The notes under the pieces: model-generated
Databases searched by the model: none
Told to the model about the DNA's origin: nothing
Seen by the model: only the letters and a program-made list of their open reading frames with translations
Assembly (NCBI GenBank): GCA_965203905.1
Contig: CBDBDQ010000005.1
Coordinates: 5,280,001 to 5,344,000 of the forward strand
Source of the DNA: Spirochaetia bacterium
GTDB lineage: Bacteria; Spirochaetota; Spirochaetia; SZUA-6; Bin103
DNA length: 64,000 nt
Direction of reading: 5' to 3'
Part shown: positions 18,652-53,036 of the stretch, piece by piece
Numbering within the stretch: position 1 is the first letter of the stretch
Layout of the letters: each line of letters starts with the position of its first letter
Program-made: the position numbers and the translations under genes

Positions 18652-18977
18652 TCAGGGAACGCCGGCGCGGGTCACGGTAGCCGGCGGCTCCCCAACCGGA
18701 AGTTCCCACAGCGCGTCGAGCGCCGCTGTCACGTTCAGCGACTCGCCGTACCACTCGGGGGTAGCGGTGTGCGGCCCGATGCGAATGCCGGCCCCCGCCA
18801 GCCGCGCCACGGTCGGCGCCAGCGGGTCCCCGCCACCCTTCCACCGTGGCGCCGGCGGCACCGCCGGCAACGGCGCGCCATCCGGGCGCAGGAACTGGAA
18901 CCCCCCTGCGCCATTGGCGACTACCTGAAAGCCTCCTCGTGCAGCGCGCGGTGATGGAATCGGCACACGAGGCGTAA
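18652..18977 (-). pseudogene. C-terminal fragment of the DUF222/HNH nuclease gene split by the 12.3-kb insertion
   Basis: Minus strand from 18977 reads TTA CGC CTC GTG TGC CGA TTC CAT CAC (LRLVCRFHHRALHEE), continuing the HNH motif from 31319. A 1-bp frameshift near 18932 leads into the GFQVV...FLRPDG...PEWYGE tail. Confidence 0.8.
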
Positions 18978-19001
18978 TGCGAAGCGTCACATTATGAGAA
19001 G
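18975..19001. repeat. Orphan RIT-type terminal repeat
   Basis: TAATGCGAAG-CGTCAC-ATTATGAGAAG has the same length and pattern as the RIT end TAATGTAAAG-TGCGGG-ATTATGTGAAG (25387-25413). Confidence 0.65.
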
Positions 19002-19005
19002 GAGT

Positions 19006-19075
19006 CTATCCGAGCTGGCCGCGCGAACGGCTGGCGCGCTGGCCGTTGCCCCGTGGCCGGGGCCAGTTCGGATAG
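19006..19075. repeat. 70-bp branched hairpin (copy 1)
   Basis: CTATCCGAGCTGGCC...GGCCAGTTCGGATAG basal stem with two internal hairpins. Confidence 0.75.
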
Positions 19076-19335
19076 GGTTGATTGAACTAAACCGCGCGCC
19101 TATGGAGATTGGAACGCCGGTATTCCGGTGGCGGCGGAGTGCTGGGCGTGCTCGGGCAGGCGGGAACTCGCGGAGCAGAACGGGGAGCTGGGTGACAGCG
19201 CCGCATGACAAGGCGGCGACGAGCGGTTGACGGGCAGATCGCGACCGGCGCCGCGCAGGGGTGCGCAGGAGCAACGGCACGGCGGCGCGAAGGGATGCGT
19301 GATGAGATCGAACCGACGGTGTTCTGGAGATTGAG

Positions 19336-20305
19336 TCATGCGGCCTCAGGGGGAGCGCGGCGACCAGGCAGGTACTCATACTCCCAGGTGGGTTGAGAGC
19401 AGAAGTCCTGGATGCGGCGCATGGTTCCTGCATGGCACACCGGACAGCGTTGGTGATCGTCGCCGGGGGGTTCGAGAGAAACTGAGAGATCAGGTGCAGT
19501 GATCAGGTCCTGGCCGGAGGCTTGGGCAATCAGATAGCGGCACAGCGGCAGTTTTTCCTTGCGTGCACGATTGGCAAGAAAGCCGTAGTGACGAATGCGG
19601 ACGAAGCGATCGGGCAGGACGTGCAGCAGGAAACGACGCAGAAACTCGACCGCATCAAGTTTCATCATCCGGTGCCGGCGGCCACGGGCATAGTCCCGGT
19701 AGCGGAAGCTCACCGAGTCCGCGTCAGCAGCGGTGATTCTGCTGTTGGCGATGGCGACGCGATGGGTGTAGCGGGCGAGATACTTCAGCACCTGCTCGGG
19801 GCCGCCGAAGGGAGGCTTGGCATACACCACCCACTGCTTGGCGCGCAGTTGCTGGCACAGTGCGCGGAAGCGAGCGGGATCAGCCAACTCGGCAAGGGCA
19901 CCGTGGAACTGGAGTTGGTCGGCAGCGAAGCGTTGCTTGAGCGCCGCCAGCATCTTGCCGCGAAACAGCTGTGAGAGGACTCGGACCGGGAGGAAGAAAT
20001 CGTCGCGGCAGGATATCCAGGTGGCCGCGTCAGGTGCCAACCCACCGCCGGGGATGACGCAGTGGATATGAGGATGGTGCAGCAGCGTTTGGCCCCAGGT
20101 GTGCAGCACGGCGATGAAGCCGATGTCAGCGCCGAGATGCTTGGGATCGGCGGCGATGGTCCTGAGGGTAGCGGCGGTGGCAGCGAACAGGGCGCCATAG
20201 ATTTCGCGTTGGTTCTGCAGCGCCAGCGGCGCCAGTTCCGCCGGCAGGGTGAAGACGACGTGGAAATAGGGGACCGGCAGGAGATCTTGGCAGCGCTTCT
20301 CCAGC
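19336..20305 (-). pseudogene. IS91-family Y2 transposase, 3' part of the disrupted copy
   Basis: Identical to the C-terminal part of 29764-30978 (HPHIH, YLARY). Confidence 0.9.
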
Positions 20306-20428
20306 TGTTTCCAGCCAGCCGGGAGTGCCAAACCCCGCCAGTCAGCGTTGCCACGACGCGCCTGGGGCTGATGCCGAGGATCGCCAGGGTCGGGCGCGGC
20401 GACCTGAGCCGCGGCGCGCCGCGCAAGG

Positions 20429-21226
20429 TCAGTCGAAGAGGTCATCGGTGACGACGTTGGTGGAGTCGATGATGGTGATGTCGTGGGCGGCGGCATGCAG
20501 GATGGAGCGGTAGCAGAGAGCGTTGACGAGGCGCGGCACGCCGCCGGCGTGGCGGTGGATGTCCGCTTTGGCGTCATCGGCGAAGATCGAGGCCGGGCGC
20601 CCACAGCGAGCGGTGTGGTGGTCGATGTAGGAGCAGGTCTCCTGCAAGGTCAGGGGCGGCATGTGATAGGAGATGCGGATGCGCTGACGGACGGCAGCGA
20701 AGGGAGCGTACTTGAGCAATTCGCGCAGTTCGGGCTGGCCGGCGAGGACGAAGGTGATGGCGGTGCGGGAGTCGAAGTGAAAGTTCACCATGCCCTTGAT
20801 GGCGGTGAGAGCGGTGCCGGCGAGGTCCTGAGCGTCATCGATGACGACGACCGGTCTCCGGTTCAGTTCGGGAATGGTCTTGAAGAACAGTTGGCTGGCC
20901 TGGCCGGAGAAGAAGGGGGGATCGATCTTGAGACCTTCGAGGACCGCCTTGACCAGCCCGGCGGCGGAGAGGCCGGAGCCGCGGACGTAAAGCGGGCTGT
21001 AGCGGTTGCTGTCCAAGGCGGCGACGAAGGCGGCCAGAGCGACCGACTTGCCGCAGCCGATGGGGCCGGAGAGCAGCAGCAGGTCCTCGTCGGCGACGCC
21101 GAAGGAGAGCCGCGAGAGGGCCTCCTGGTGGGCGCTGGACGGGAAGGTGTCGGTGGGCGTGAGGTGCTTGCCGAACGGCAGGCGGGAGAAGCCGAAGAAG
21201 GAAAGGACTTGATCATGCATCGGCAT
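20429..21226 (-). CDS. ExeA/TnsC-like AAA+ ATPase (transposition helper)
   Basis: FGFSRLPF, Walker A GPIGCGKS, Walker B VVIDDAQ, LAGQPEL, RQRI; start re-called (RBS AGGAG). Confidence 0.88.
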   Translation of the reverse strand: MPMHDQVLSFFGFSRLPFGKHLTPTDTFPSSAHQEALSRLSFGVADEDLLLLSGPIGCGKSVALAAFVAALDSNRYSPLYVRGSGLSAAGLVKAVLEGLKIDPPFFSGQASQLFFKTIPELNRRPVVVIDDAQDLAGTALTAIKGMVNFHFDSRTAITFVLAGQPELRELLKYAPFAAVRQRIRISYHMPPLTLQETCSYIDHHTARCGRPASIFADDAKADIHRHAGGVPRLVNALCYRSILHAAAHDITIIDSTNVVTDDLFD

Positions 21227-22634
21227 CGTGGTGCTCCTGGTTGTTGTTTTTGTCGTCGTCGGTGGACTGGAAGCGGGTGAACGAAGTCTGATTGCGGTCG
21301 CGCAGCGCGGCGTGGTGCTGCTCGCGCAGGCGGGTGAACCAGGCGCGCGCCGCGGCCGACACCTGCGCCGGCTTGGCGGCGGACTCGGCGGGGACGTTGG
21401 GTACCTGCGCGGTGACCTGCCTGGAGGCGCTGGTGGTCTCCAGCAGCACGCCGGATGAGTCGTAGATGGCAAGCTGTACCAGGTCGTAGGGATCGAAGCG
21501 CACCTCGACCACGGTGCCGTGGGCGACGCTGGTGACCGGATACTGATTGCCGTGCAGCTTGATCTTGCCGTACTTGCTGACGGTGCGCCGAGCGCGCCAC
21601 AGGAACAGTGCGTTGAAGGCATCGAGATCGGTGATGCGGCGATGATCGGGCGGCAGGCCGTCGCGGAAGCGGGCATCGGGACTCTGCCCGGTAGCAGAGT
21701 GGACGCGGGTGTTGTACTCCAATTCCATCCAGGCCCAGAAGGCGGAGTTCAACTCGTCGATGGTGCGCATGCCGGCGACCTGGGCCTCGCGTTGGAACTG
21801 GTTCTTGATGGTCTTGTTGGCGGCCTCGATTTTGCCCTTGCAGTAGGCCTGATAGGGCGGGTGGCGCACCCGCTTGATACGCAGCTCGACCAGGATGGCG
21901 AGCAGGTGGCGGGCGAGATAGACCTTGCCGCCGTCGACGTAGACGCGCACCGGGATGCCGTAGCGCAACAGGCAGTAGCGGAAGCTGTCGAGCAAGGCAG
22001 GCAGCTTCTCGTCGAAGTAGTATTTGCCGAACAGGATTTTGCGGGAGAAGTCGTCGAGCCACAGGAACAGGTAGGTCTTCTTGCGGCCAGCGGGAGTGTC
22101 GAGCCAGATGCCGTCGCGGGCGTCGGCCTGTACCAGAGCCAGGGTGTGGGGCGCCTCGAAGGAGCGGAAGGAGGTGCGCGCATCGTCGCCGAGCATGAGG
22201 TAGCGGGTGCTCTTGGTGAGGCCGTGGTCGGCCAGGAAGCGGTACAGGGTGCGATCCGAGATACGCTTGATCTTGGGGCCGAGCTTGGCGTCGGCGGCGA
22301 TCAGCTTGCGCAGTTGCGAGACGCTTCTGGTGGGCACTTCGTTGATCAGGTTCAGCAGCTTGGCACGCAGCGCCGGATCGTGGACCCGCGGCGAGGTGGG
22401 CCGCGGGCGGTAGAACAGCAGGCCGCGAGGTCCCTGTTTCCGATAACGGTGCAGGTAGCCGCGGATGGTACGGTCACCGACTCGGTGACGTTCCTGGTAG
22501 AGCCGTTGCTCGGCCCGTTTGTCGGCCTCCGGCAGCAGCGGATCGAGCAGTATCTCGACCAGGTGGAGGCGCTCGCTGAATGCCTCCACGACCGCGTCCG
22601 GGAGCTGCTCCCAATTGAGGTCGCCGCCGCTCAT
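21213..22634 (-). CDS. DDE (rve) transposase with Mu-transposase C-terminal domain
   Basis: QADARD, VYVDGG and KGKIE catalytic motifs; C-terminal RTVSKYGKIKLHGNQY...VRFDPYDL; ATGA-coupled start. Confidence 0.88.
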   Translation of the reverse strand: MSGGDLNWEQLPDAVVEAFSERLHLVEILLDPLLPEADKRAEQRLYQERHRVGDRTIRGYLHRYRKQGPRGLLFYRPRPTSPRVHDPALRAKLLNLINEVPTRSVSQLRKLIAADAKLGPKIKRISDRTLYRFLADHGLTKSTRYLMLGDDARTSFRSFEAPHTLALVQADARDGIWLDTPAGRKKTYLFLWLDDFSRKILFGKYYFDEKLPALLDSFRYCLLRYGIPVRVYVDGGKVYLARHLLAILVELRIKRVRHPPYQAYCKGKIEAANKTIKNQFQREAQVAGMRTIDELNSAFWAWMELEYNTRVHSATGQSPDARFRDGLPPDHRRITDLDAFNALFLWRARRTVSKYGKIKLHGNQYPVTSVAHGTVVEVRFDPYDLVQLAIYDSSGVLLETTSASRQVTAQVPNVPAESAAKPAQVSAAARAWFTRLREQHHAALRDRNQTSFTRFQSTDDDKNNNQEHHDADA

Positions 22635-23224
22635 TCGAGATCCTCGTGTTCGCCGACGACGGCGCGCCGCAGCAGCTGATCGCGGTAGTCGCACCACGCC
22701 TCGTGCAGGCACAGGCCCGCCGGGCGCGTGCAGATCTCGCGCAGCCGCTCGACCTCCTCGGCGAGCTTCTGCAGCAGCACGTCGAGGACCAGCTCCAGGT
22801 GATCGGCCTCGCTGTGCCGCGGGGTGTCGGGATCGAGGAACAACTCCAACACCCAACTGCACAGGAACGAGAGCCGGTCAGCCAGTTCTTGCAGCAGCGC
22901 TGCCAGGAGCCCGAACTCCTCCAGCAGGCACGGCGGGGTATCGAGCAGCAGAGTCAATAGCCGCTCCCGCACCAGTGCGTCCTGCCGTCCGAACGCCGTC
23001 TGCCGGCGCCAAGTGCCGGTCAGCAAGCCGGCGACGCCGGTGTGCCGGTAGCGCGCCAGCGCCTGCCACAGGTCGCGCTCATCGTCGCCGCGGCGCCGGC
23101 ACTGCTCCAGCAGCCAGCCGCGCCGGCGTGGCGGTGGCGCCGGTTCTTGCAGAATCCGTCGTATCAAAAGCAGGTGCTCTTCCAGGCGAGCCACCTGGTG
23201 GGGAGAAACCAGTATCGCATCCAC
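22631..23224 (-). CDS. Hypothetical helical protein of the transposon
   Basis: RBS GGAGG before GTG 23224; coupled to the transposase; RYRHTGVAGL resembles the transposase HTH segment RYRKQGPRGL. Confidence 0.6.
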   Translation of the reverse strand: MDAILVSPHQVARLEEHLLLIRRILQEPAPPPRRRGWLLEQCRRRGDDERDLWQALARYRHTGVAGLLTGTWRRQTAFGRQDALVRERLLTLLLDTPPCLLEEFGLLAALLQELADRLSFLCSWVLELFLDPDTPRHSEADHLELVLDVLLQKLAEEVERLREICTRPAGLCLHEAWCDYRDQLLRRAVVGEHEDLE

Positions 23225-23250
23225 GTTGATGCCTCCAAGGCGTGAGATGC

Positions 23251-23895
23251 TCAACTGGTATCGAACCAGAGCCAGTACCGTAAGACCTGATTCAATGGTA
23301 GTGCCAGCGGGCTGCGGGCGCGCACCACCACGTAGCACAGACGCAGGCAGCCGATGACCCCGAGCGCGCCGCCTCGACCCTGGGCGCGGCGTCTGGCAAG
23401 CGCGAGCGCTACCAGGTAACGATGCAACTCAGCCAAGCCGCTTCCGCCGGCGCGCACCTCAGGCAGCGCCGCGAATGGCGCCAACTCCGCCAGCAGTGCG
23501 CTTGCCGCCAGCGTGCTGGTCGCGATCAGGTGCCCTACCCACTCCAGATGACGCGTTATGGTGTGCTCGCAGAAGCTGCCGATCACGCCCGCAGCGCGCT
23601 CATAGGCCAGCTTGATGCCGACCTCCGGCCCCTTCGGATGCCGTGCCACCAGCTGGTGCAGGTTCATCGCCAGGTCCAGCCGGATGTTGCATTCCGGGAT
23701 CACGAACCACGGCAGCATGCGCTTGGTGTATTGCTTGCCCTGTCGCCGCGCCTTCTCACAGATGCACGACAGGATCAGAATCCGGTGGTTCCTGCCATCC
23801 GCGCAGCGCACCAGACGCTCACACCAGGCGTGGATGCGCAACGCATGCACACACCCGCACAGCAGGCATGGGTGCTGCGCGGCGGCGCCGGTCAC
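23251..23895 (-). CDS. DUF6431-like Zn-finger protein of the transposon
   Basis: CLLCG...H...C...LPWFVIP pattern; first gene inside the element. Confidence 0.6.
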   Translation of the reverse strand: MTGAAAQHPCLLCGCVHALRIHAWCERLVRCADGRNHRILILSCICEKARRQGKQYTKRMLPWFVIPECNIRLDLAMNLHQLVARHPKGPEVGIKLAYERAAGVIGSFCEHTITRHLEWVGHLIATSTLAASALLAELAPFAALPEVRAGGSGLAELHRYLVALALARRRAQGRGGALGVIGCLRLCYVVVRARSPLALPLNQVLRYWLWFDTS

Positions 23896-24103
23896 CGTCG
23901 CCAGATATACTTGAATGTCGAAACCTGCAAGGTTAGGATGTGCCAGTTCTCTTGGTGGGGGTCACCGTGTACCGGGCAAAGTACAGGCGGTGGCCCCTAT
24001 CTCTTTTCTTGGTCTCCGGAACCGCTTCCGGGCGAACCTATCCTATCCCTGCTGGCGGGGTTGTACAGAACCAGGAACTCTCACTTGGCGGGCAACATCC
24101 AGC

Positions 24104-24348
24104 CACTTGGCGCGCTGCTGCGCCTGGCACTTCGGACAGTGACGATTGCGGCAGGAGTTGTACGATACGCGTAGTTCACCACAGGCGTCGCAAGCATCGA
24201 CGTGGCCGCCGAGCTTGGCAGTACGGCAGGCTGTGAGGTCGCGCATGACGCGCTGTTGTGCCTGCGACACCCGCAAGCCTGGCACGCGACCGTCGGTAGT
24301 GGCCAGGGTACGGATGACGTCGGCCACCTCGAAGGGTGGCTGGTGCAC
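24104..24348 (-). pseudogene. IS91-family transposase, 5' part (Zn-binding domain) of the disrupted copy
   Basis: CRTAKLGGH, SCRNRHCPKCQ, identical to the start of 29764-30978. Confidence 0.9.
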
Positions 24349-24355
24349 GGATCGC

Positions 24356-25198
24356 TCAGCGCAGCGGTGGCAACGACTCCAGTGGGCTCTCGACTGCGCT
24401 GATGCGCTTGCGGGTGACGTGGGTATAGATCACGGTACTCCTGATCGAGGCATGTCCGAGCAGCGCCTGGACGGTGCGCAGATCGGTGCCGGATTCCAGC
24501 AGGTGGGTGGCGAAACAGTGGCGCAAGGTATGCGGGGATACGGGCTTGCCGGCGACGACGTGGCGCACCTTGGCGATGGCCTGCGCCACCGCATCCCTGG
24601 TGACGTGGCGGTCGCGATAGGTCCTGCTGGGAAACAGCCAGTGGCGGGGCCGATAGCGTCGGTAGTGGCAGCGCAAGTGGTGCAGCAGGAGCGGCGCCAA
24701 GGTCACCAAACGATCCTTGCGGCCCTTGCCTTGCACGACGTGCAGCAGCATCCGCTCGCTGTCGATATCGGTAATCCGCAGGGAGACCGCCTCGGAAACG
24801 CGCAGCCCGGCGGCATACAGGGTCATGGCAATGACGCGGTGCTGCGGGTTGGTGATCGCATCGAGTACGGCGCGCACCTGGTCCTGGCTCAAGACCAGCG
24901 GCAGCTTCTTGGGCTGCTTGGCGAACGGGATGGACTCGATGTGCCAGTCCTTGCCGAGGGTCTTGAGGTACAGGAAGCGGAGAGCGCAGACCGCCTGATT
25001 GAAGCTGCCCCAGCCCAGATTTCGCTCCTGCACCAGATGCAGTTGATAGGCTCGTATTTCGTCGAGCCCGAGCAGTTCCGGAGAGCGGTTGAAGTAGCGC
25101 GCAAACAACGCGACCTGGCGGACGTAGTACTCGATGGTGTGCGGGGACAGGTTGCGCACCCGCATGTCTTCGATCATTCTCTGGCGCAGTGGTGTCAT
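24356..25198 (-). CDS. Tyrosine recombinase (IS91-associated integrase), copy 1
   Basis: GLRVSE, KGRKDR, HTLRH, LGHASIRSTVIY; start MTPLRQRM with RBS AGGAG. Confidence 0.92.
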   Translation of the reverse strand: MTPLRQRMIEDMRVRNLSPHTIEYYVRQVALFARYFNRSPELLGLDEIRAYQLHLVQERNLGWGSFNQAVCALRFLYLKTLGKDWHIESIPFAKQPKKLPLVLSQDQVRAVLDAITNPQHRVIAMTLYAAGLRVSEAVSLRITDIDSERMLLHVVQGKGRKDRLVTLAPLLLHHLRCHYRRYRPRHWLFPSRTYRDRHVTRDAVAQAIAKVRHVVAGKPVSPHTLRHCFATHLLESGTDLRTVQALLGHASIRSTVIYTHVTRKRISAVESPLESLPPLR

Positions 25199-25518
25199 GA
25201 TGGACTCCTCCTGGTGTAGAGACGCGTGGTCCATCAGCCCCCGGAGCGCCGTTACGCTCCGGGGGCAACCACCCATCTCCCGTTAGTAGAGGTCAGACAC
25301 CATATAGGGGTTGTACGTGGGAAGGGCTCCGCGCCTCGAGACGGCCGACGCCACCCCTACCGCGAAGCGGTTTAGTTCTAGTCAGCTAATGTAAAGTGCG
25401 GGATTATGTGAAGTAGATGGCAGGACGGGTCCATTTGATGGGCTCCAGGCAGCATTAGCGGGTAATTGCGGTAGCCAGGACTTCGCATTATCGCGCTCCT
25501 TCAAGCAAGGAGGCATCC

Positions 25519-26748
25519 ATGCTTGAAGACCATCTCAAGTTGGCGAGCACTTGTCGCAGACTCCGTCGTGGGCCCGCGTGCGCGTATATAGACGGCTTCG
25601 CCGACTGGCTCCATGAGCGCGGCTATCAAGCCAAGTTTGTCCTGCGTACGTTGGCGGGATGGACCGACTGGCTCACCGCGAAATCGTTTACTGATGAGGC
25701 TTTCGTAGCCGGGTACGAGGCGTGCCGGAAGGAGTTGTCTGAGCGAGGCCGTGTCCGCTATCAGCGGGGACCCAACCGAAATTCACTGTGGGCCGCCACG
25801 GTGTTCATCCGGTTCTTGCGGGAGCAGGGCGTCGTGGCCGTCGAGCAGCGGCTGATTCTGAGCGAACGCTGGCCACTGCTGAAGCAGTTTCGGCAGTGGA
25901 TGCTGCAACACCGAGGCGTGACACACAGCACCATGGACGGCTACGAGCGCTACGTAGCCGATTTCATCGAGGCTCTGGGAGTTGTTCCGGCGCACTACAG
26001 CGCCGCTGCGGTGCGCGGCTTTGTGATCAAGCGCTGTGACGGTCATAAGGTCAAAACGGCTCAGTCGATCACCACGGCGGTGCGTGCCTTCTTGCGGTTC
26101 CTCGCCGCCACCGGGCAGTGCTGCGACGGCCTGCGGCACGCGGTGCCACGCTTCGCGTGCTACCAGCTCGCCGCCACGCCGCGGTTCCTTGAGCCTGAGG
26201 ATCTGGAGAAGGTAGTCGCCAGTTGCACCGATGAGGATGCAGTTGGGGCCAGAGATCGGGCGGTAGTCCTGCTGCTCGCTCGGCTAGGCCTGCGCGCCAG
26301 CGAGGTCGCCGAGCTGACCTTCGATGCGGTCGACTGGCAGCACGGGCGCATCGCCGTCTGCGGCAAGGGTCGGCGCCAACACTGGCTGCCGCTTCCGCAG
26401 CAGGTCGGCGACGCCATCGTCACCTATCTGCGCCGCGGACGCCCGCCGTTGCCGGTGCCACAGGTGTTCATCTCGGCTGTGGCGCCGCGTCGCCCGATGA
26501 CTCGACAAGCCGTGTCCGGTGTCGTGTGCAAAGCTCTCCGTCGCGCAGGCATCAAGGCGCCCCACCACGGTGCACATCTGCTGCGCCATTCGGCCGCCAC
26601 CGCCATGCTGCGCAACGGGGTGTCCCTGGCCGGTATCGGCAGTGTCCTGAGGCACCGCTCCCCGCAGACCACCGCCCACTACGCCAAGATCGACTTCGAG
26701 CTGCTGGGCGAAATCGCCCAGCCGTGGCCGGAGGCACCATCATGCTGA
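25519..26748 (+). CDS. ritA: RIT tyrosine recombinase A
   Basis: LARLGLRASEV, HLLRHS, HRSPQTTAHYAK. Confidence 0.88.
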   Translation: MLEDHLKLASTCRRLRRGPACAYIDGFADWLHERGYQAKFVLRTLAGWTDWLTAKSFTDEAFVAGYEACRKELSERGRVRYQRGPNRNSLWAATVFIRFLREQGVVAVEQRLILSERWPLLKQFRQWMLQHRGVTHSTMDGYERYVADFIEALGVVPAHYSAAAVRGFVIKRCDGHKVKTAQSITTAVRAFLRFLAATGQCCDGLRHAVPRFACYQLAATPRFLEPEDLEKVVASCTDEDAVGARDRAVVLLLARLGLRASEVAELTFDAVDWQHGRIAVCGKGRRQHWLPLPQQVGDAIVTYLRRGRPPLPVPQVFISAVAPRRPMTRQAVSGVVCKALRRAGIKAPHHGAHLLRHSAATAMLRNGVSLAGIGSVLRHRSPQTTAHYAKIDFELLGEIAQPWPEAPSC

Positions 26749-27653
26749 ACGACCACGTAGAGCGCTATCTCATGCTGCGGCGATCCCTCGGTTACAAGCT
26801 GCGGGACACAGCCCGCCATCTCCAGGCGTTCGCAGGTTTCGCCAGCGACAGGGGCGATACCCATGTCCGCGCCGCTACCGCCGTGGAGTGGGCAGCGCAG
26901 GCGTCCTCGCCGCTCATGCGCCATGTTCGACTCCATGACGTCGTCCTGTTGGCCCGCTTCTTGTACGCCGAGGACGCGACCCACGAGATACCCCCAGCTC
27001 GCTACTTCCAGGTCCGTGTGGTGCGCCAGCCGCCCTACATCTACACGCCGGCTGAGATCGGCCAACTGCTGGTGGCGGCGCACCGTCTGCCCTGCTCCTA
27101 CGCGCTGCGCCGGCCCGTCTATGCGACCCTGATCGGGCTCATCGCCGCCACCGGACTGCGGGTCTCGGAGGCGCTCGACCTACGCTTCGACGACCTGCTT
27201 CCCAACGCCGTTCTGCGCATCCGCCAAACCAAGTTCGCCAAGAGCCGACTGGTGCCGCTGCATGCGACCTCGGTCGACGCACTGACTGCGTACTTGCAGG
27301 AGCGGCAGCGCTTCGCCAGCGCCGACGACCATCTGTTCGTGTCAGCGAACCGCCGGCGCATCCCGACACCAATGGCCAGTACTACCTTCCAAAAAGTGAT
27401 CCGGCTCGCAGGCATCGCTCCTGGCCGCCAGCGCCGCCCCCGACTGGCGGATCTGCGTCACACCTTTGCCACCAGATCCCTGCAACGCTGTGCGGTCCAG
27501 CGCGATTCGGTGGCGCGCCACTTGGTCGCGCTCTCCACCTACCTCGGTCACGCTAGCCCCGCCTACACCTACTGGTACTTGGAGGCGACCCCGGAATTGA
27601 TGGCCGACATCGCCACGGCCGGCGAGAACCTGGTTGCCGGGAGGTTGGCATGA
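26742..27653 (+). CDS. ritB: RIT tyrosine recombinase B
   Basis: RRSLGYKL, TGLRVSEA, TKFAKSRLVPLH, LSTYLGH...TYWYL; start re-called at ATG 26742. Confidence 0.88.
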   Translation: MLNDHVERYLMLRRSLGYKLRDTARHLQAFAGFASDRGDTHVRAATAVEWAAQASSPLMRHVRLHDVVLLARFLYAEDATHEIPPARYFQVRVVRQPPYIYTPAEIGQLLVAAHRLPCSYALRRPVYATLIGLIAATGLRVSEALDLRFDDLLPNAVLRIRQTKFAKSRLVPLHATSVDALTAYLQERQRFASADDHLFVSANRRRIPTPMASTTFQKVIRLAGIAPGRQRRPRLADLRHTFATRSLQRCAVQRDSVARHLVALSTYLGHASPAYTYWYLEATPELMADIATAGENLVAGRLA

Positions 27654-28642
27654 CTCCCATCGCACCCCTGATCACCCACTTCCTGCGCGACTACCTCCCT
27701 GTGGAGCGCGGCTATAGCCCGCATACCTGCGAGAGCTACGCCTATGCCTTCCGTCTGTTGTTCACCTTCGCCGCCGAACGCCTCGGCGTCAGACCGTCGG
27801 CGCTTCACCTTGAACATCTCGACGCACCGCTCATCGTCGCTTTCCTGACCCACTTCGAGGTGGATCGTGGTGGCAGCCCCGCCAGCCGCAACGTCCGCCT
27901 GGCAGCAGTGAAAGCCTTCATGCGCTATGTCGAGTTCCGCCACCCGGCGGCACTCGACATAGCCAGGCAGATCCTCGCCATCCCCTCCAAGCGCCATGAT
28001 CAGCCGCTCGTCCGCCACCTCACCATGGACCAGATCAACGCGATTCTGGACGCTCCCGATACCTCCACCCGGTTCGGCATCCGCGACCGCGCCATGCTCC
28101 ATCTGTGTTTCGCCGCTGCGCTGCGCGTGTCCGAACTGGTGACGGCGCAGGTAGCAGATCTGTCGCTGCGCGGAACTGCGAGTATCCGAGTCCTTGGCAA
28201 GGGCCGCCGTGAGCGCTGTCTCCCGCTGTGGAAGCAGACCACCGCTGACCTGCGCGCTTGGCTCGCCGTGCGCGGAGAGGTTTCCACGCCTGAGCTGTTT
28301 CTGAACGCTACCGACAGGCCGATGGGTCGCGCCGGGTTCAAGCACCTCCTGAACAAGCATGTGCGCGCTGCCGTAGCGGACTGCCCCTCGCTGGCCGGAC
28401 GCTCGATCTCGCCTCACCAGCTCCGCCACAGCTGCGCCGTCATCTTGCTCCAGGCTACCGGTGATATCCGCAAGGTGGCACTGTGGTTGGGGCATGCCGA
28501 TGTGCGCACCACCGAAGTCTATCTACGCGTCGATCCCACCGAGAAGTTGGAGGCCGTCGAAGCCGTGCTGCCACCGGAACTACGTCGCGGTCGTTTCAAA
28601 GCCCCTGACGCTCTGATCGCCGCGCTCCTGGACCCGAGATAA
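27650..28642 (+). CDS. ritC: RIT tyrosine recombinase C
   Basis: SPHTCESY, RNVRLAA, GKGRRER, HQLRHS, LGHADVRTTEVY. Confidence 0.88.
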   Translation: MTPIAPLITHFLRDYLPVERGYSPHTCESYAYAFRLLFTFAAERLGVRPSALHLEHLDAPLIVAFLTHFEVDRGGSPASRNVRLAAVKAFMRYVEFRHPAALDIARQILAIPSKRHDQPLVRHLTMDQINAILDAPDTSTRFGIRDRAMLHLCFAAALRVSELVTAQVADLSLRGTASIRVLGKGRRERCLPLWKQTTADLRAWLAVRGEVSTPELFLNATDRPMGRAGFKHLLNKHVRAAVADCPSLAGRSISPHQLRHSCAVILLQATGDIRKVALWLGHADVRTTEVYLRVDPTEKLEAVEAVLPPELRRGRFKAPDALIAALLDPR

Positions 28643-28913
28643 TGTGCAGCGATCTTGGACACAACTTACTTTCCTGGCAGGAGTTAAGTAGCGCTACTTT
28701 ACATAATCCCGCACTTCACATTAGAGGATCATTGAACTAAACCGCTTCGCGGTAGGGGTGGCGTCGGCCGTCTCGAGGCGCGGAGCCCTTCCCACGTACA
28801 ACCCCTATATGGTGTCTGACCTCTACTAACGGGAGATGGGTGGTTGCCCCCGGAGCGTAACGGCGCTCCGGGGGCTGATGGACCACGCGTCTCTACACCA
28901 GGAGGAGTCCATC

Positions 28914-29756
28914 ATGACACCACTGCGCCAGAGAATGATCGAAGACATGCGGGTGCGCAACCTGTCCCCGCACACCATCGAGTACTACGTCCGCCAGGTC
29001 GCGTTGTTTGCGCGCTACTTCAACCGCTCTCCGGAACTGCTCGGGCTCGACGAAATACGAGCCTATCAACTGCATCTGGTGCAGGAGCGAAATCTGGGCT
29101 GGGGCAGCTTCAATCAGGCGGTCTGCGCTCTCCGCTTCCTGTACCTCAAGACCCTCGGCAAGGACTGGCACATCGAGTCCATCCCGTTCGCCAAGCAGCC
29201 CAAGAAGCTGCCGCTGGTCTTGAGCCAGGACCAGGTGCGCGCCGTACTCGATGCGATCACCAACCCGCAGCACCGCGTCATTGCCATGACCCTGTATGCC
29301 GCCGGGCTGCGCGTTTCCGAGGCGGTCTCCCTGCGGATTACCGATATCGACAGCGAGCGGATGCTGCTGCACGTCGTGCAAGGCAAGGGCCGCAAGGATC
29401 GTTTGGTGACCTTGGCGCCGCTCCTGCTGCACCACTTGCGCTGCCACTACCGACGCTATCGGCCCCGCCACTGGCTGTTTCCCAGCAGGACCTATCGCGA
29501 CCGCCACGTCACCAGGGATGCGGTGGCGCAGGCCATCGCCAAGGTGCGCCACGTCGTCGCCGGCAAGCCCGTATCCCCGCATACCTTGCGCCACTGTTTC
29601 GCCACCCACCTGCTGGAATCCGGCACCGATCTGCGCACCGTCCAGGCGCTGCTCGGACATGCCTCGATCAGGAGTACCGTGATCTATACCCACGTCACCC
29701 GCAAGCGCATCAGCGCAGTCGAGAGCCCACTGGAGTCGTTGCCACCGCTGCGCTGA
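28914..29756 (+). CDS. Tyrosine recombinase (IS91-associated integrase), copy 2
   Basis: Identical translation to 24356-25198. Confidence 0.92.
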   Translation: MTPLRQRMIEDMRVRNLSPHTIEYYVRQVALFARYFNRSPELLGLDEIRAYQLHLVQERNLGWGSFNQAVCALRFLYLKTLGKDWHIESIPFAKQPKKLPLVLSQDQVRAVLDAITNPQHRVIAMTLYAAGLRVSEAVSLRITDIDSERMLLHVVQGKGRKDRLVTLAPLLLHHLRCHYRRYRPRHWLFPSRTYRDRHVTRDAVAQAIAKVRHVVAGKPVSPHTLRHCFATHLLESGTDLRTVQALLGHASIRSTVIYTHVTRKRISAVESPLESLPPLR

Positions 29757-29763
29757 GCGATCC

Positions 29764-30978
29764 GTGCACCAGCCACCCTTCGAGGTGGCCGACGTCATCC
29801 GTACCCTGGCCACTACCGACGGTCGCGTGCCAGGCTTGCGGGTGTCGCAGGCACAACAGCGCGTCATGCGCGACCTCACAGCCTGCCGTACTGCCAAGCT
29901 CGGCGGCCACGTCGATGCTTGCGACGCCTGTGGTGAACTACGCGTATCGTACAACTCCTGCCGCAATCGTCACTGTCCGAAGTGCCAGGCGCAGCAGCGC
30001 GCCAAGTGGCTGGAGAAGCGCTGCCAAGATCTCCTGCCGGTCCCCTATTTCCACGTCGTCTTCACCCTGCCGGCGGAACTGGCGCCGCTGGCGCTGCAGA
30101 ACCAACGCGAAATCTATGGCGCCCTGTTCGCTGCCACCGCCGCTACCCTCAGGACCATCGCCGCCGATCCCAAGCATCTCGGCGCTGACATCGGCTTCAT
30201 CGCCGTGCTGCACACCTGGGGCCAAACGCTGCTGCACCATCCTCATATCCACTGCGTCATCCCCGGCGGTGGGTTGGCACCTGACGCGGCCACCTGGATA
30301 TCCTGCCGCGACGATTTCTTCCTCCCGGTCCGAGTCCTCTCACAGCTGTTTCGCGGCAAGATGCTGGCGGCGCTCAAGCAACGCTTCGCTGCCGACCAAC
30401 TCCAGTTCCACGGTGCCCTTGCCGAGTTGGCTGATCCCGCTCGCTTCCGCGCACTGTGCCAGCAACTGCGCGCCAAGCAGTGGGTGGTGTATGCCAAGCC
30501 TCCCTTCGGCGGCCCCGAGCAGGTGCTGAAGTATCTCGCCCGCTACACCCATCGCGTCGCCATCGCCAACAGCAGAATCACCGCTGCTGACGCGGACTCG
30601 GTGAGCTTCCGCTACCGGGACTATGCCCGTGGCCGCCGGCACCGGATGATGAAACTTGATGCGGTCGAGTTTCTGCGTCGTTTCCTGCTGCACGTCCTGC
30701 CCGATCGCTTCGTCCGCATTCGTCACTACGGCTTTCTTGCCAATCGTGCACGCAAGGAAAAACTGCCGCTGTGCCGCTATCTGATTGCCCAAGCCTCCGG
30801 CCAGGACCTGATCACTGCACCTGATCTCTCAGTTTCTCTCGAACCCCCCGGCGACGATCACCAACGCTGTCCGGTGTGCCATGCAGGAACCATGCGCCGC
30901 ATCCAGGACTTCTGCTCTCAACCCACCTGGGAGTATGAGTACCTGCCTGGTCGCCGCGCTCCCCCTGAGGCCGCATGA
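29764..30978 (+). CDS. IS91-family (Y2/HUH) transposase
   Basis: Zn domain SCRNRHCPKCQ, YFHVVFTLP, HUH HPHIH, Y2 YLARY, RIRHYGFL. Confidence 0.92.
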   Translation: MHQPPFEVADVIRTLATTDGRVPGLRVSQAQQRVMRDLTACRTAKLGGHVDACDACGELRVSYNSCRNRHCPKCQAQQRAKWLEKRCQDLLPVPYFHVVFTLPAELAPLALQNQREIYGALFAATAATLRTIAADPKHLGADIGFIAVLHTWGQTLLHHPHIHCVIPGGGLAPDAATWISCRDDFFLPVRVLSQLFRGKMLAALKQRFAADQLQFHGALAELADPARFRALCQQLRAKQWVVYAKPPFGGPEQVLKYLARYTHRVAIANSRITAADADSVSFRYRDYARGRRHRMMKLDAVEFLRRFLLHVLPDRFVRIRHYGFLANRARKEKLPLCRYLIAQASGQDLITAPDLSVSLEPPGDDHQRCPVCHAGTMRRIQDFCSQPTWEYEYLPGRRAPPEAA

Positions 30979-31238
30979 CTCAATCTCCAGAACACCGTCG
31001 GTTCGATCTCATCACGCATCCCTTCGCGCCGCCGTGCCGTTGCTCCTGCGCACCCCTGCGCGGCGCCGGTCGCGATCTGCCCGTCAACCGCTCGTCGCCG
31101 CCTTGTCATGCGGCGCTGTCACCCAGCTCCCCGTTCTGCTCCGCGAGTTCCCGCCTGCCCGAGCACGCCCAGCACTCCGCCGCCACCGGAATACCGGCGT
31201 TCCAATCTCCATAGGCGCGCGGTTTAGTTCAATCAACC

Positions 31239-31308
31239 CTATCCGAACTGGCCCCGGCCACGGGGCAACGGCCAGCGCGCCAGCCGTTCGCGCGGCCAGC
31301 TCGGATAG
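31239..31308. repeat. 70-bp branched hairpin (copy 2)
   Basis: CTATCCGAACTGGCC / GGCCAGCTCGGATAG (14/15 paired); inner GCCCCG-GCCA-CGGGGC and AACGGC-N10-GCCGTT hairpins. Confidence 0.75.
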
Positions 31309-31318
31309 ACTCCTTCTC

Positions 31319-32886
31319 AAATTGCTGAGCTCTGTCGCCCCGCCGTCCGCCCAATGCACGACGTGATGGGCGTCGCAGTGGCGGGAGTTGCAGCCGGGAA
31401 ACTGACAGCCGTTGCGATCCCGGCCTTCGAGAGCACGGCGCATCGCGGTCGGAACCGTCCGGGTCCGGCGCCCCACGTCGAGTACGCCGCCGTCGGGGGC
31501 GTGGATCAGCACCAACCCCCCGGAGTCGCAGCCGATGCGGCGTGCGGCGTGCTTGCCCAGGTGGATGCCTCCAGCCTGCTCAATTACCGCCTGGCCGGCG
31601 TCAAGGCCGGATCCCGCCGCGGCGTGGTGGTGAGCGTCCGCGGTGTCGACATGCGTCTGGCCCGCAACGGCATCCGCCGGCGCCGCAGGTCCCGAGGCCG
31701 CTTCGCGGGCCGCCTGCGTTTCCGCGGAAGTGGCCGCCGTGGGGGCGTCCACCGCGGGACCTTCACGTCCCGCGGCCGCCGGGCAGGTCGCGGACGTTTC
31801 CGCGGAAGTGTCCACTGTAGCGGCGTTCGCCGCGGGGTGTGCAGGTTCCGGGACCGTCGGGCGGGTCGCGCGCGATGCCGCGAAAAGGTCCGCGATGGCC
31901 GCGTTCGCCGTGGGGGCTGCAGGTTCCGGGGACACTGGGCGGATCGTGTGCGTTTCCGCGGAAGTGTCTGCCGTGGCGTTGATGGGCTCGCTGGAGCGAA
32001 GGGTCTCCGCTTCGACGTGCACGGTTACCTGGAAGCGGTCGCCGGGCCTGCCCGGATCGAGCCCGCCGGCCAGCGCGCTCTCGGCCACCAGCCCCAGCGC
32101 ATCCGCACGCCGCTGCGCGATGCCCGCTTCTTCTCCCTCGGCCCCCGCCGGCACCTGCTCCAGCGCCGCCTCCAGGGCGCGCAGCACTACCGCGCCCACC
32201 TCGGGAGTCAGCCGCGCCCGCAGCACCACCATACCATCCTCGTCCACCCGCGTGCTCAGCGCGCGTCGCGCCAGGCGCGCCTTCTCGGCGTCCGGCAACG
32301 CCTCCCGGTCCGCCTGCCGCCACGCACGCACCAGGCGCTCCACCTGCGCGCCGGTGGCACAGCAGGCAATGGCGACCAGGTGCGCCTCGTTGTCGGGGGT
32401 AGCCACCCGCGTCAGGCCGCGTACCACGGAATAGGACAGCCGGCCGCAGGCCATGGCCGCGGAAAGGTGGTTGAGATCGGCCAGGGCGGCGGCGACGCGC
32501 AGCTTCTCGCGCGCGGCGCCCAGGTCGAGGCCGGTGCGCCAGTTGAGCCAGTGCGCACAGGAGCGGAAGCCCTCCCAGCCGTAATGGCAGTCGAACTCGC
32601 GCAGGTAGCAAAGCAACTCGTAGGTGGCGGCCTGGATGCGCGCGGACAGCTCCGCGATGCAGTTGCCGAGCCGGCCCAGGTCGGGTGGTTGCTGCGGATC
32701 GGACGGCGCCGGGCGCTCGCTGTCGGCGGCGGCGGGCGCGCTCACGGCACCGGCGGGCGGAGTCCCAGTTGTGACTGGCGCTTCCAACGTGGTGGCCGCC
32801 GTGACCGCGGTCGGCTCGGTGGTCGCCGAGTCGGGCGAAGCTGTCGGGATCGGCGGGCAGGCAAGGGTGCTGGTGCGGGGTGTCAT
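31319..32886 (-). pseudogene. DUF222 (13E12-like)/HNH endonuclease, N-terminal part, interrupted
   Basis: SCAHWLNWRTG, QRRADAL, LDVGRRTR, RDRNGCQFPGC...DAHHVVHWADGGATELSN; probable start ATG 32886. Confidence 0.85.
31720..31963. repeat. Four 78-bp (26-aa) tandem units with palindromic TTCCGCGGAA core, inside the DUF222 gene
   Basis: Cores at 31720, 31798, 31876 (degenerate) and 31954, exactly 78 bp apart; encode TSAET. Confidence 0.8.
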
Positions 32887-33299
32887 GCCACCATGGTACA
32901 CCCGGTTTCCGGCGCCCCCGTGCTGGCCAGTGGACGAGCCGATCGTCCAATTTCGGCTTTCCGACCCGATAACGGGCGCGGCGTACCGACAGCGTGCGGT
33001 GAGGGCCGAAAAGAGACCATAGTCTGCAGGGTCGGGAACATGCCGAAGTCGCGCGCTCAGATCCATGTCAACCCCTTCAGCCAAAAAACAGCGACAATTT
33101 CAGCTATTCTCGCACCCTTTGGCGGCATGGTGATCTACGAACCGGACATCGTCAGATCGAATTCGGCTGGCATCGCAGAATCGGTGCGTCTCGGCTCCGC
33201 ACTGAGCTGCATTGTCGCGGCCCATCGGGGCGCGGCATGATCCGGGTGCGAGACAAGTCAAGCTCGACACGCCGATGCAGCATGACAGTCACGACGTCT

Positions 33300-50710: not shown

Positions 50711-50790
50711 GCCGGCCAGCCGTCGTGGCGACGGCCAATCTTTGCAGCTCCGAGCGCAACGAATCGCGCCGGGGCCCTGAGGAGGCGCTC

Positions 50791-52956: not shown

Positions 52957-53036
52957 GGCAGCCAGCCGTCGTGACGACGGCCCAATCTTTGCAACTCCGA
53001 GCGCAACGAATCGCGCCGGGGCCGAAGGAGGCGCTC

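Follow-up and report, generated by a model that had tools for sequence, protein, structure and literature searches.

Landing sites of an integrase-carrying IS91-family element at RIT termini and dif-like arms in a Spirochaetia genome

How does an IS91-family element that carries its own tyrosine integrase select the DNA into which it inserts? The question is raised by a stretch of 64,000 nucleotides (nt; called the window throughout) from a Spirochaetia bacterium (GTDB lineage Spirochaetota; Spirochaetia; SZUA-6; Bin103; GenBank assembly GCA_965203905.1, contig CBDBDQ010000005.1, forward-strand positions 5,280,001 to 5,344,000), in which two inverted copies of such an element, here called E, flank a recombinase-in-trio (RIT) element. 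According to the original prediction, made from the same DNA, the ends of E dock on the RIT ends and form dif-like arm-spacer-arm sites with them. Docking of this integrase/Y2 (Int/Y2) element on RIT termini and other T(A/T)ATG arms proved to lie far above chance, both in the source genome and among relatives of the same genus, and the junctions suggest that the integrase-carrying IS91 group picks dif-like recombination sites over the four-base IS91 target.

Both inner junctions join an end of E to a RIT arm. The left copy of E reaches its left end at position 25378 and is followed by the 8-nt spacer TAGTCAGC (25379-25386) and the left arm of the RIT element (25387-28723, plus strand, 3,337 bp); the right RIT arm is separated by the 10-nt spacer GAGGATCATT (28724-28733) from the left end of the right copy of E (28734-31319, plus strand), which is intact and 2,586 bp long. 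The left inner junction (25367-25397) reads GCGGTTTAGTTC-TA-GTCAGC-TAATGTAAAGT and the right one (28745-28713, minus strand) GCGGTTTAGTTC-AA-TGATCCTC-TAATGTGAAGT. The hybrid arm-spacer-arm structures described there by the original prediction, all of whose quoted strings are present in the window, are real. The two outer copies of the 12-mer GCGGTTTAGTTC both continue as GCGGTTTAGTTC-AA-TCAACC-CTATCCGAACT and had been proposed as docking sites of the same kind. This part of the proposal fails: CTATCCGAACT is the 5' foot of a hairpin within E itself (31239-31308), and its recurrence at both outer ends, which follows from its being element sequence, is not an independent observation. Among the four 12-mers taken to be element ends, the inner two stand as such; the outer two are subterminal, with E continuing for a further 89 nt through the 70-nt hairpin. 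The general docking pattern gains strength at the corrected ends: at 18995, where the left E copy truly ends on its outer side, the element touches a TAATG arm.

The source genome holds four copies of E, namely the two in the window and those at positions 6312263-6314848 and 2163285-2165868 of the same contig (C5). Written in E orientation as left flank, E and right flank, the left copy of the window has ...ACTTTACATTA GCTGAC TA before it and TAATGTGACGCTTCGCATTA after it; the latter is X, a 20-nt near-palindrome given as X' (TAATGCGAAGCGTCACATTA) at 18975-18994, where two inverted RIT-type arms touch the right end of E. A second locus (L002) has GCGTCACATTA (X') CGCCTT TA on the left and TAATGTAAAGT, the RIT left arm, on the right. 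The right copy of the window has ACTTCACATTA (the RIT right arm) GAGGATCA TT on the left and AATTGC on the right, and the fourth copy (L003) has TTCGTTCATAA ATTCTA TT on the left and, on the right, a 21-nt remnant of the E right end followed by TTATGTCGTGA. L002 contains one E only, and the RIT arm meets its right end there, not its left end. With E deleted in silico, the window locus becomes X'-TAGTCAGC-RIT arm and L002 becomes X'-CGCCTTTA-RIT arm; this arm-N8-arm site has been entered by E at opposite spacer boundaries and in opposite orientations at the two loci, and at both of them the right end of E touches one arm and the left end lies one spacer from the other. That a two-fold symmetric site is cut at either boundary is, judging from sequence, the strongest single argument that the arms are read.

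In total, 3 of the 4 copies in the source genome sit at RIT- or X-type arms, of which there are just 15 in 8 Mb; the background of T(A/T)ATG is 2.25e-4 per position and strand, with 3,595 occurrences of TWATG/CATWA in the genome. Empty sites in the same genome amounted to two of the form CATWA-N6-TWATG and one with N8, none with RIT-type arms, and one of the two N6 sites lies in the window itself (954-969, CATTACGGGATTTATG). The description of the target as dif-like holds for its arm-spacer-arm geometry and not for the chromosomal dif site, which was ruled out as the target: the cumulative GC skew reaches its maximum at ~5.76 Mb of C5, the copies of E lie at 2.16, 5.30, 5.31 and 6.31 Mb, and this terminus is ~0.45 Mb or more from each of them.

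With relatives of the same genus included, 11 right-end junctions were available, and in six (window-left, L002, L124, L125, L126b and L129) T(A/T)ATG follows E at once; at the background given above, this corresponds to a binomial p of about 6e-20, a value that, like the counts, overstates independence, as junctions of the source genome and of one relative (G004) may partly share one ancestral insertion. The other right flanks were ATATG (L130), tandem remnants of E's own end (L003, L131), CAAGTT (L126a) and AATTGC (window-right). The flanks are thus neither random nor confined to the classical CTTG/GTTC word, a target of that type being present at only 1 of the 11 right ends (CAAG, L126a). 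Five of the 19 distinct left junctions have a CAT(A/T)A whose last base lies 9 nt before GAAC, and in window-right the interval is 11 nt; the remaining 13 have no clear arm. The dinucleotide preceding GAAC is TT or TA in all 19. The check on the flanks of other copies, which had been set beforehand, accordingly gave enrichment of the arm 8 nt from the left end and at the right end. The target spacer may be 8 nt long, or 6 nt long with a shared T(T/A); either would fit these sequences. One tandem 21-nt remnant of the E right end (TT plus the last 19 nt) follows the intact end at L003, and three do so at L131; such tandem end remnants suggest repeated insertion at one junction, followed by deletion.

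The same junction types at a second locus and in other genomes, together with the enrichment statistics of the right and left flanks, leave it barely conceivable that the arrangement arose by chance or as an assembly artefact, an inverted duplication around the RIT element. In its favour, the structure forms one long palindrome, imperfect and some 12 kb in length, but the two arms of this palindrome are set apart by a 3.8-kb insertion that has its own target duplication, and their outer flanks differ as well.

Further junctions bear on the order of events. G004 carries a mini-RIT of 97 nt, which is composed of two direct arms, about 45 nt and one inverted arm and contains no genes. It occurs twice (L259, 8665-8756; L260, 4008-4091), beside E each time, touching the right end of one E and lying 8 nt from the left end of another, and X-type palindromes of the form TTATG(T/C)GAAGCTTCACATAA fill the complementary flank positions. 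At L124 and L129, the right ends of E lie on T(A/T)ATG arms that are not RIT, and ATATG at L130 is a near-miss. These non-RIT arms argue against a reversed order, in which RIT inserted beside existing E ends or E-RIT-E moves as a composite, as does L002, with its one E and the RIT arm at the right end. RIT is mobile and has identical copies, which would suit a late arrival, and in Acidobacteriota the left ends of two IS91-type families face each other across 10 nt in the absence of any RIT (L048, L058 and L067, in two genomes; GCGGCTTCGTTC AAACGGCTTT GGACTAAACCGC). However, the outer flank of the left E copy is X, which elsewhere stands on the RIT side, and metagenomic left ends give a positional signal in unrelated contexts (described below). 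We therefore regard the reversed order as very unlikely.

The RIT element is typical throughout, with nothing unusual. Its genes ritA (25519-26748), ritB (26742-27653) and ritC (27650-28642) overlap by 7 nt (ritA/ritB) and 4 nt (ritB/ritC) and encode proteins of 409, 303 and 330 amino acids (aa), all three with the Phage_integrase domain of Pfam. The 30-nt terminal inverted repeats (25387-25416 and 28694-28723) each contain two direct T(A/T)ATGT(A/G)AAGT arms. A second, near-identical copy (C5:6314849-6318185) fixes the ends exactly, since the flanks of the two copies diverge beyond TAATGT...ACATTA. The gene trio, its overlaps, the size, the inverted repeats and the second copy all place the element among RITs, which in the accessible text of PMC3414803 are about 3.5 kb long, with a 28-29-bp inverted repeat and identical copies per genome. 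X, with its two RIT-type arms and no spacer, occurs only twice in the source genome (the second copy at C5:6312235-6312254), each time beside E and RIT and, once E is removed, 8 nt outside the RIT left end. The outer flanks of these two copies are unrelated. The two X copies of G004 share just 89 nt, that is, similar palindromes and then about 69 nt in common. X may be RIT's own target or an outer RIT arm.

Because the sequence shared by all copies of E stops at window position 31319, this position marks the right end of the element. Three of the four copies are 100% identical, indicating that E was recently active, and the fourth (2163285-2165868) is 91% identical. The two copies of the window are inverted around the RIT element, and their repeats reach out to 18990 and 31324. 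The right copy carries the integrase gene (28836-29756, 306 aa) and the Y2 transposase gene (29764-30978, 404 aa). E begins with GAACTAAACCGC, followed by the small palindrome ACCGCTTCGCGGT, and its 3' module comprises the inverted 12-mer (31219-31230), the 8-nt AATCAACC, the hairpin (31239-31308) and an 11-nt tail, ACTCCTTCTCA, which extends to 31319 and terminates in ...CTCCTTCTCA. The imperfect 70-nt hairpin has a predicted folding energy of -25.6 kcal/mol on the top strand. Four occurrences of GCGGTTTAGTTC in the window (19084-19095, minus strand; 25367-25378, plus; 28734-28745, minus; 31219-31230, plus), compared with 0.08 expected and a count reached in 0 of 100 shuffles, result from two copies of one element with a 12-bp terminal/subterminal inverted repeat. 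Ten complete copies were examined for target-site duplication and had no flanking direct repeat of >2 nt; a T(T/A) dinucleotide was identical on both flanks in 6 of the 10. The ends follow the IS91-type plan, with GAAC and ACCGCTTCGCGGT on the left and the 70-nt hairpin 3' of Y2 on the right; for IS91, the accessible part of PMC13181058 describes an upstream terIS that combines GTTC with a single palindrome, and a downstream oriIS containing palindromes.

The left copy is interrupted in its Y2 gene, a point absent from the original prediction. Its distal part (18995-20305, minus strand; inverted repeat I1, matched by positions 1276-2586 of the query at 100% when E was compared with its own genome by BLAST) contains the right, oriIS-like end (18995), the hairpin (19006-19075), the subterminal 12-mer (19084-19095) and the 3' part of Y2. 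The proximal part (24098-25378, minus strand; inverted repeat I2) contains the 5' part of Y2, the integrase gene (24356-25276) and the left, terIS-like end (25378). Between them lies a 3,792-bp transposon (20306-24097, minus strand) with TG..CA ends and a 6-bp duplication, TCCAGC, which encodes an AAA_22 ATPase (20429-21676) and, at 21213-22862, a transposase in which rve and Mu-transposase C domains are combined. Two or three further open reading frames (ORFs) of this transposon have no Pfam match, and the genome contains a single full copy of it and, elsewhere, a 340-nt fragment at 86% identity. Just outside the right E copy, four tandem 78-nt repeats (31674-31985; 65-72% identical to the first) sit in a long ORF without Pfam match (31354-33240). 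Two direct repeats of ~500 nt, 86-98% identical and 2,246 nt apart, lie farther along the window (50735-51237 and 52982-53483).

By enzyme and by ends, E is a member of the IS91 family, one for which the IS91 target rule failed. Its transposase matches Y2_Tnp (1.7e-68) and Zn_Tnp_IS91 (3.6e-31) of Pfam, scores 446 bits against the NCBIfam model transpos_IS91 (cutoff 125) and has the motifs HIH and YLARY, read by eye in the translation. The integrase combines Phage_integrase with an N-terminal SAM_4 domain (Pfam), and its homologues align from residue 27. Its best family is the integron integrase TIGR02249, yet the score of 210 bits is below the cutoff of 265 and is split into two separate stretches (the first at 33-209), so that the protein does not qualify as an IntI; PRK15417 gives 149 bits at a cutoff of 435. 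The closest solved relative is IntI4 (2a3v). The residues R..K..HxxRH..H..Y are present (by eye), and the catalytic motifs of both integrase and Y2 look intact in the translations. Tyrosine recombinases borne by IS91 elements fall in an integron-like subgroup without the IntI insertion, according to the portion of 10.1101/542381 available.

Metagenomic sequences supplied a separate set of left ends. The scan used the 12-mer plus AA as its pattern, which fixes the first two flank bases as AA, and gave 80 loci from at least 119 matching stretches. A left end was accepted as confirmed when an integrase gene lay upstream on the expected strand (35 of the 80 loci; the 45 unclassified loci were excluded), and the scored set consisted of 34 confirmed left ends whose flanks, 40 nt or longer, were followed from GTTC along the bottom strand; this set and the figures drawn from it are among the matches listed. 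Flank position 3 was C in 25 of the 34 (background 26%, p about 1e-8), which is a G before TT-GAAC, and 23 had T at position 10 (p about 1e-7). At +9, the motif [ATG]TA[TG] started in 9 of the 34, compared with 0-3 at each of the other positions from +1 to +36; relative to a mean of 0.78 for +14 to +36, this excess has a p of about 6e-8. Metagenomic flanks are thus not random, a T(A/T)AT-type arm lying 8 nt from the left end in about a quarter of insertions.

Sorting the metagenomic matches by upstream palindrome alone was dropped, as it mixed left ends with right-end-like modules. Three loci (L173, L204 and L163) contain gene-free palindromic mini-units, made up of an inverted left-end 12-mer, a hairpin and TT-GAAC..., which are possibly non-autonomous derivatives or fossil circle junctions. 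At three others (L174, L198 and L211), a tyrosine recombinase gene lies ~230 nt past an E-type left end and reads towards the element, with a flank arm GTATAC(G/A)GA(A/C)C at L174 and L211 and without such an arm at L198; here another recombinase-borne element may serve as the landing pad.

Relatives of the integrase are widespread, with 548 confirmed in one scan, in Acidobacteriota, Alpha-, Beta- and Gammaproteobacteria, Planctomycetota and the present lineage. We compared distant families with integrases 40-57% identical, covering 78 loci, most of which retain the integrase gene beside Y2. The left end GAAC(T/G)AANCCGC recurs across phyla, with GGAC in one family, and 3' of Y2 at least nine families have a GTYCAA box and, after a short spacer, a hairpin that is unrelated in sequence; a purine-ended tail of 7-11 nt and then T(T/A) follow. 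A strict search for the inverted 12-mer at the right ends of other families found few, and a hairpin search performed better. In a gammaproteobacterial metagenome-assembled genome (MAG; L029), E's relative is flanked by a perfect palindrome, TTCATGATTA-TTTCTG-TA before it and TAATCATGAA after it, and at L046 the right end is followed by TTATGC. In an Acidobacteriota family whose right end is ...CTCTGCA, TTATCG comes next in 6 of 8 cases, and the flank is TTATCGGAATGTGG twice. At three loci, this family has its left end 10 nt away from that of a different IS91-type element. This arm has 206 and 146 copies in two genomes (G061 and G062, 1 mismatch allowed), and the reversed-pattern control gave 0. 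In these genomes (L261-L290), it often forms inverted pairs ~40 nt apart and also same-orientation runs over hundreds of kb; it has the look of an Acidobacteriota repeat family of REP-like or attC-like kind, and Int/Y2 elements of these bacteria use it as a landing site. Unoccupied arm-N4-12-arm sites numbered 0 in the two Acidobacteriota genomes, which contain single arms in great number.

An alphaproteobacterial family (11 copies in one MAG) has TTCC after the right end in every copy, and 4 of the 11 (L060, L061, L064 and L065), as well as L086, lie on a multi-repeat IS21-type end rather than on dif-like arms. At L086 (7400-8040), the docked IS21 transposase gene is itself broken by a RIT whose left end has two TTATGT arms. 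The arms used in other phyla differ widely in sequence, with no RIT within 5 kb. The insertion sites of distant families in other phyla comprise TTAT/TAAT arms, repeated palindromes and IS21 ends. Landing next to the termini of other mobile DNA seems to be a common habit of the Int/Y2 group, and the dif-like arm pattern is family-specific, not universal.

Which enzyme places E at these sites? We lean, with modest confidence, towards a division of labour in which Y2 makes a circle of E, and E's own integrase reads the arms and carries out a one-strand exchange where arm and spacer meet. Y2 would produce a circular, probably single-stranded, copy of E, whose junction ...TCA-TT-GAAC... would bring the 12-bp repeat together in a stem closed around the hairpin (a computed fold); natural tandem or circle-like junctions read R-TT-GRAC. 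The integrase would bind the arms of a target of the form ...CAT(A/T)A - 6 to 8 nt - T(A/T)ATG..., with dif-like core geometry, and swap one strand at the arm/spacer boundary, and replication would complete the insertion, so that E would abut one arm with its right end and have its left end one spacer from the other. In this genus, the targets would mostly be RIT termini and the associated 20-nt palindrome. Because the site is two-fold symmetric, E could enter in either orientation, and exchange of one strand would leave the target spacer on the left and the element tail on the right without homology in the spacer. Integron cassette insertion or Xer-dependent phage integration would provide the precedent. 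For IS91 itself, the active intermediate is a single-stranded bottom-strand circle and the classical targets are CTTG/GTTC, as stated in the accessible text of PMC13181058.

Several observations weigh against this division of labour. No junction indicates whether the integrase or Y2 was the acting enzyme, the circle junction of E is unlike the target arms, and no attP x attB pair is evident. The cut after GTTC at the left end is IS91-family Y2 behaviour at terIS, as far as PMC13181058 describes it in its accessible text. A recognisable second arm is lacking in 14 of the 19 genus left junctions, or in 13 with the arm 11 nt away in window-right counted, and in 25 of the 34 scored metagenomic flanks, and T(A/T)ATG is missing from the right flank of window-right (AATTGC) and L126a (CAAGTT). 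To these are added the possible shared ancestry of source-genome and G004 junctions, the absence of empty arm pairs from the two Acidobacteriota genomes, and the TTCC flanks and IS21-type docking of the alphaproteobacterial family.

Y2 acting alone is, accordingly, a serious if clearly less probable explanation. Its target, on the strand that is transferred, would have shifted to (C/G)AT(A/T)A, which it might read in single-stranded DNA where a hairpin has its foot or its loop; palindromes (RIT ends, X, REP-like) would be favoured, and the integrase would serve multimer resolution, Orf121-like control of termination, or excision. This agrees with ends built on the IS91 plan, with GTTC and a palindrome on the left and a palindrome module on the right, with the lack of any target duplication past the shared dinucleotide, and with a right end joined directly 3' of ...AT(A/T)A on the bottom strand, as IS91 is to its tetranucleotide. 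The classical CAAG is used at one junction, targets are often hairpin-forming (X and the TTATCGGAATGTGG palindromes), and the integrase gene occupies the orf121 position upstream of tnpA (described for IS91 in the available portion of PMC13181058). However, the 5-nt target is present 3,595 times, and yet 3 of the 4 copies sit on roughly a dozen RIT/X arms. Window-right and L126a have a RIT arm at the correct distance on the left without T(A/T)ATG on the right, which implies that the far-side arm matters on its own. No hairpin rule fits all cases, the cut lying at the 3' foot for X and on the 5' side of the loop for the RIT arm, and classical IS91 members lacking an integrase are without such arms in what the accessible text of PMC13181058 covers.

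The arms might instead be held by the Rit proteins or by host Xer, with E exploiting the complex or its nicks and its own integrase not being the reader. The arms are indeed RIT's own terminal repeats and are XerD-like as quoted in the original prediction, and the IS21 ends used by the alphaproteobacterial family are bound by a DDE transposase rather than by a tyrosine recombinase. The different arms of other phyla, where no RIT lies within 5 kb, point the other way, and the fact that most of the 78 loci have kept the integrase beside Y2 speaks for its having a part in the cycle of the element itself. We consider this improbable.

IS91 elements are known for moving neighbouring genes, and for the members studied a four-base target and a single-enzyme mechanism count as settled. 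E belongs to what we take to be the IS91 subgroup with an upstream phage-integrase ORF (ISAzo26, ISShvi3, ISWz1 and others in ISfinder/TnPedia), and we know of no role established for the integrase in it. ISShvi3 lies beside an attC site in the accessible text of PMC9229058. Our literature search, which covered sources other than subscription-only papers and ISfinder pages, found no account of target choice by integrase-carrying IS91 elements and no description of RIT termini with an adjacent 20-nt palindrome as landing sites. Junctions at arm boundaries, in either orientation, make the question of the integrase concrete and testable. If the integrase is responsible, E would exemplify two-enzyme transposition with site-specific integration and might be related to the integron cassette system; should Y2 be the enzyme responsible, E would have a retargeted HUH transposase that reads far more than four bases. 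Either way, the junctions account for the pile-up on other mobile DNA and offer a handle on the mechanics of RIT ends.

Compared with known systems, E shares with IS91, IS801 and IS1294 a Y2 HUH transposase with a zinc-binding N-terminus, the absence of a terminal target duplication and the plan of the ends. As in IS91, an upstream ORF nearly abuts tnpA, but that of IS91 is Orf121 and that of E an integron-like tyrosine recombinase; and whereas these elements target GTTC/CTTG, E targets T(A/T)AT arms that are accompanied, at a distance of 6-8 nt, by a second arm in inverted orientation. 

Integron cassettes resemble E in another respect, the nearest family of its integrase being IntI. E and its relatives start with TT-GAAC or TT-GGAC and end with a GTYCAA box, spacer, imperfect hairpin, purine and the next TT, in an order resembling that of a cassette. 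The integron core is TTRRRY and the inverse core RYYYAAC; the boxes of E each fit the attC consensus at 6 of 7 positions, a consensus that is degenerate, and GTTCAAT...hairpin...A-TTGAAC is formed only across the right-to-left junction of E. Unlike cassettes, E carries its own integrase and transposase, has no attI or Pc platform and targets dif-like sites rather than attI/attC, and unlike IntI, its integrase is without the IntI-specific insertion. We tentatively raise, as an idea that we would not expect to hold in full, that Int-IS91 elements are self-mobilising cassette-like units: Y2 would release a single-stranded circle, whose junction (GTYCAA box, hairpin and R-TT-GRAC box) would fold into an attC-like site and be recombined by the integrase, through exchange of one strand, into double-stranded Xer/RIT-type cores or mobile-element ends. 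If true, rolling-circle transposition and integron-type single-strand recombination would be united in one element, and such elements would be a candidate stock for the origin of integron integrases and attC sites.

IMEX have in common with E the arm-6/8-arm core, an ATAA/TTAT centre, compatibility with one-strand exchange and no need for spacer homology. In contrast to IMEX, which are phages and islands using host XerCD at dif, E has its own recombinase and transposase, uses repeated or mobile-element sites and has a junction that does not mimic the target. Ultimately, mobile elements that home to the recombination or transposition sites of others include IS1111/IS110 in attC, Tn7-like elements and the Tn5053 'res hunters', and E shares their homing habit whilst differing from them in enzyme family and in the kind of target.

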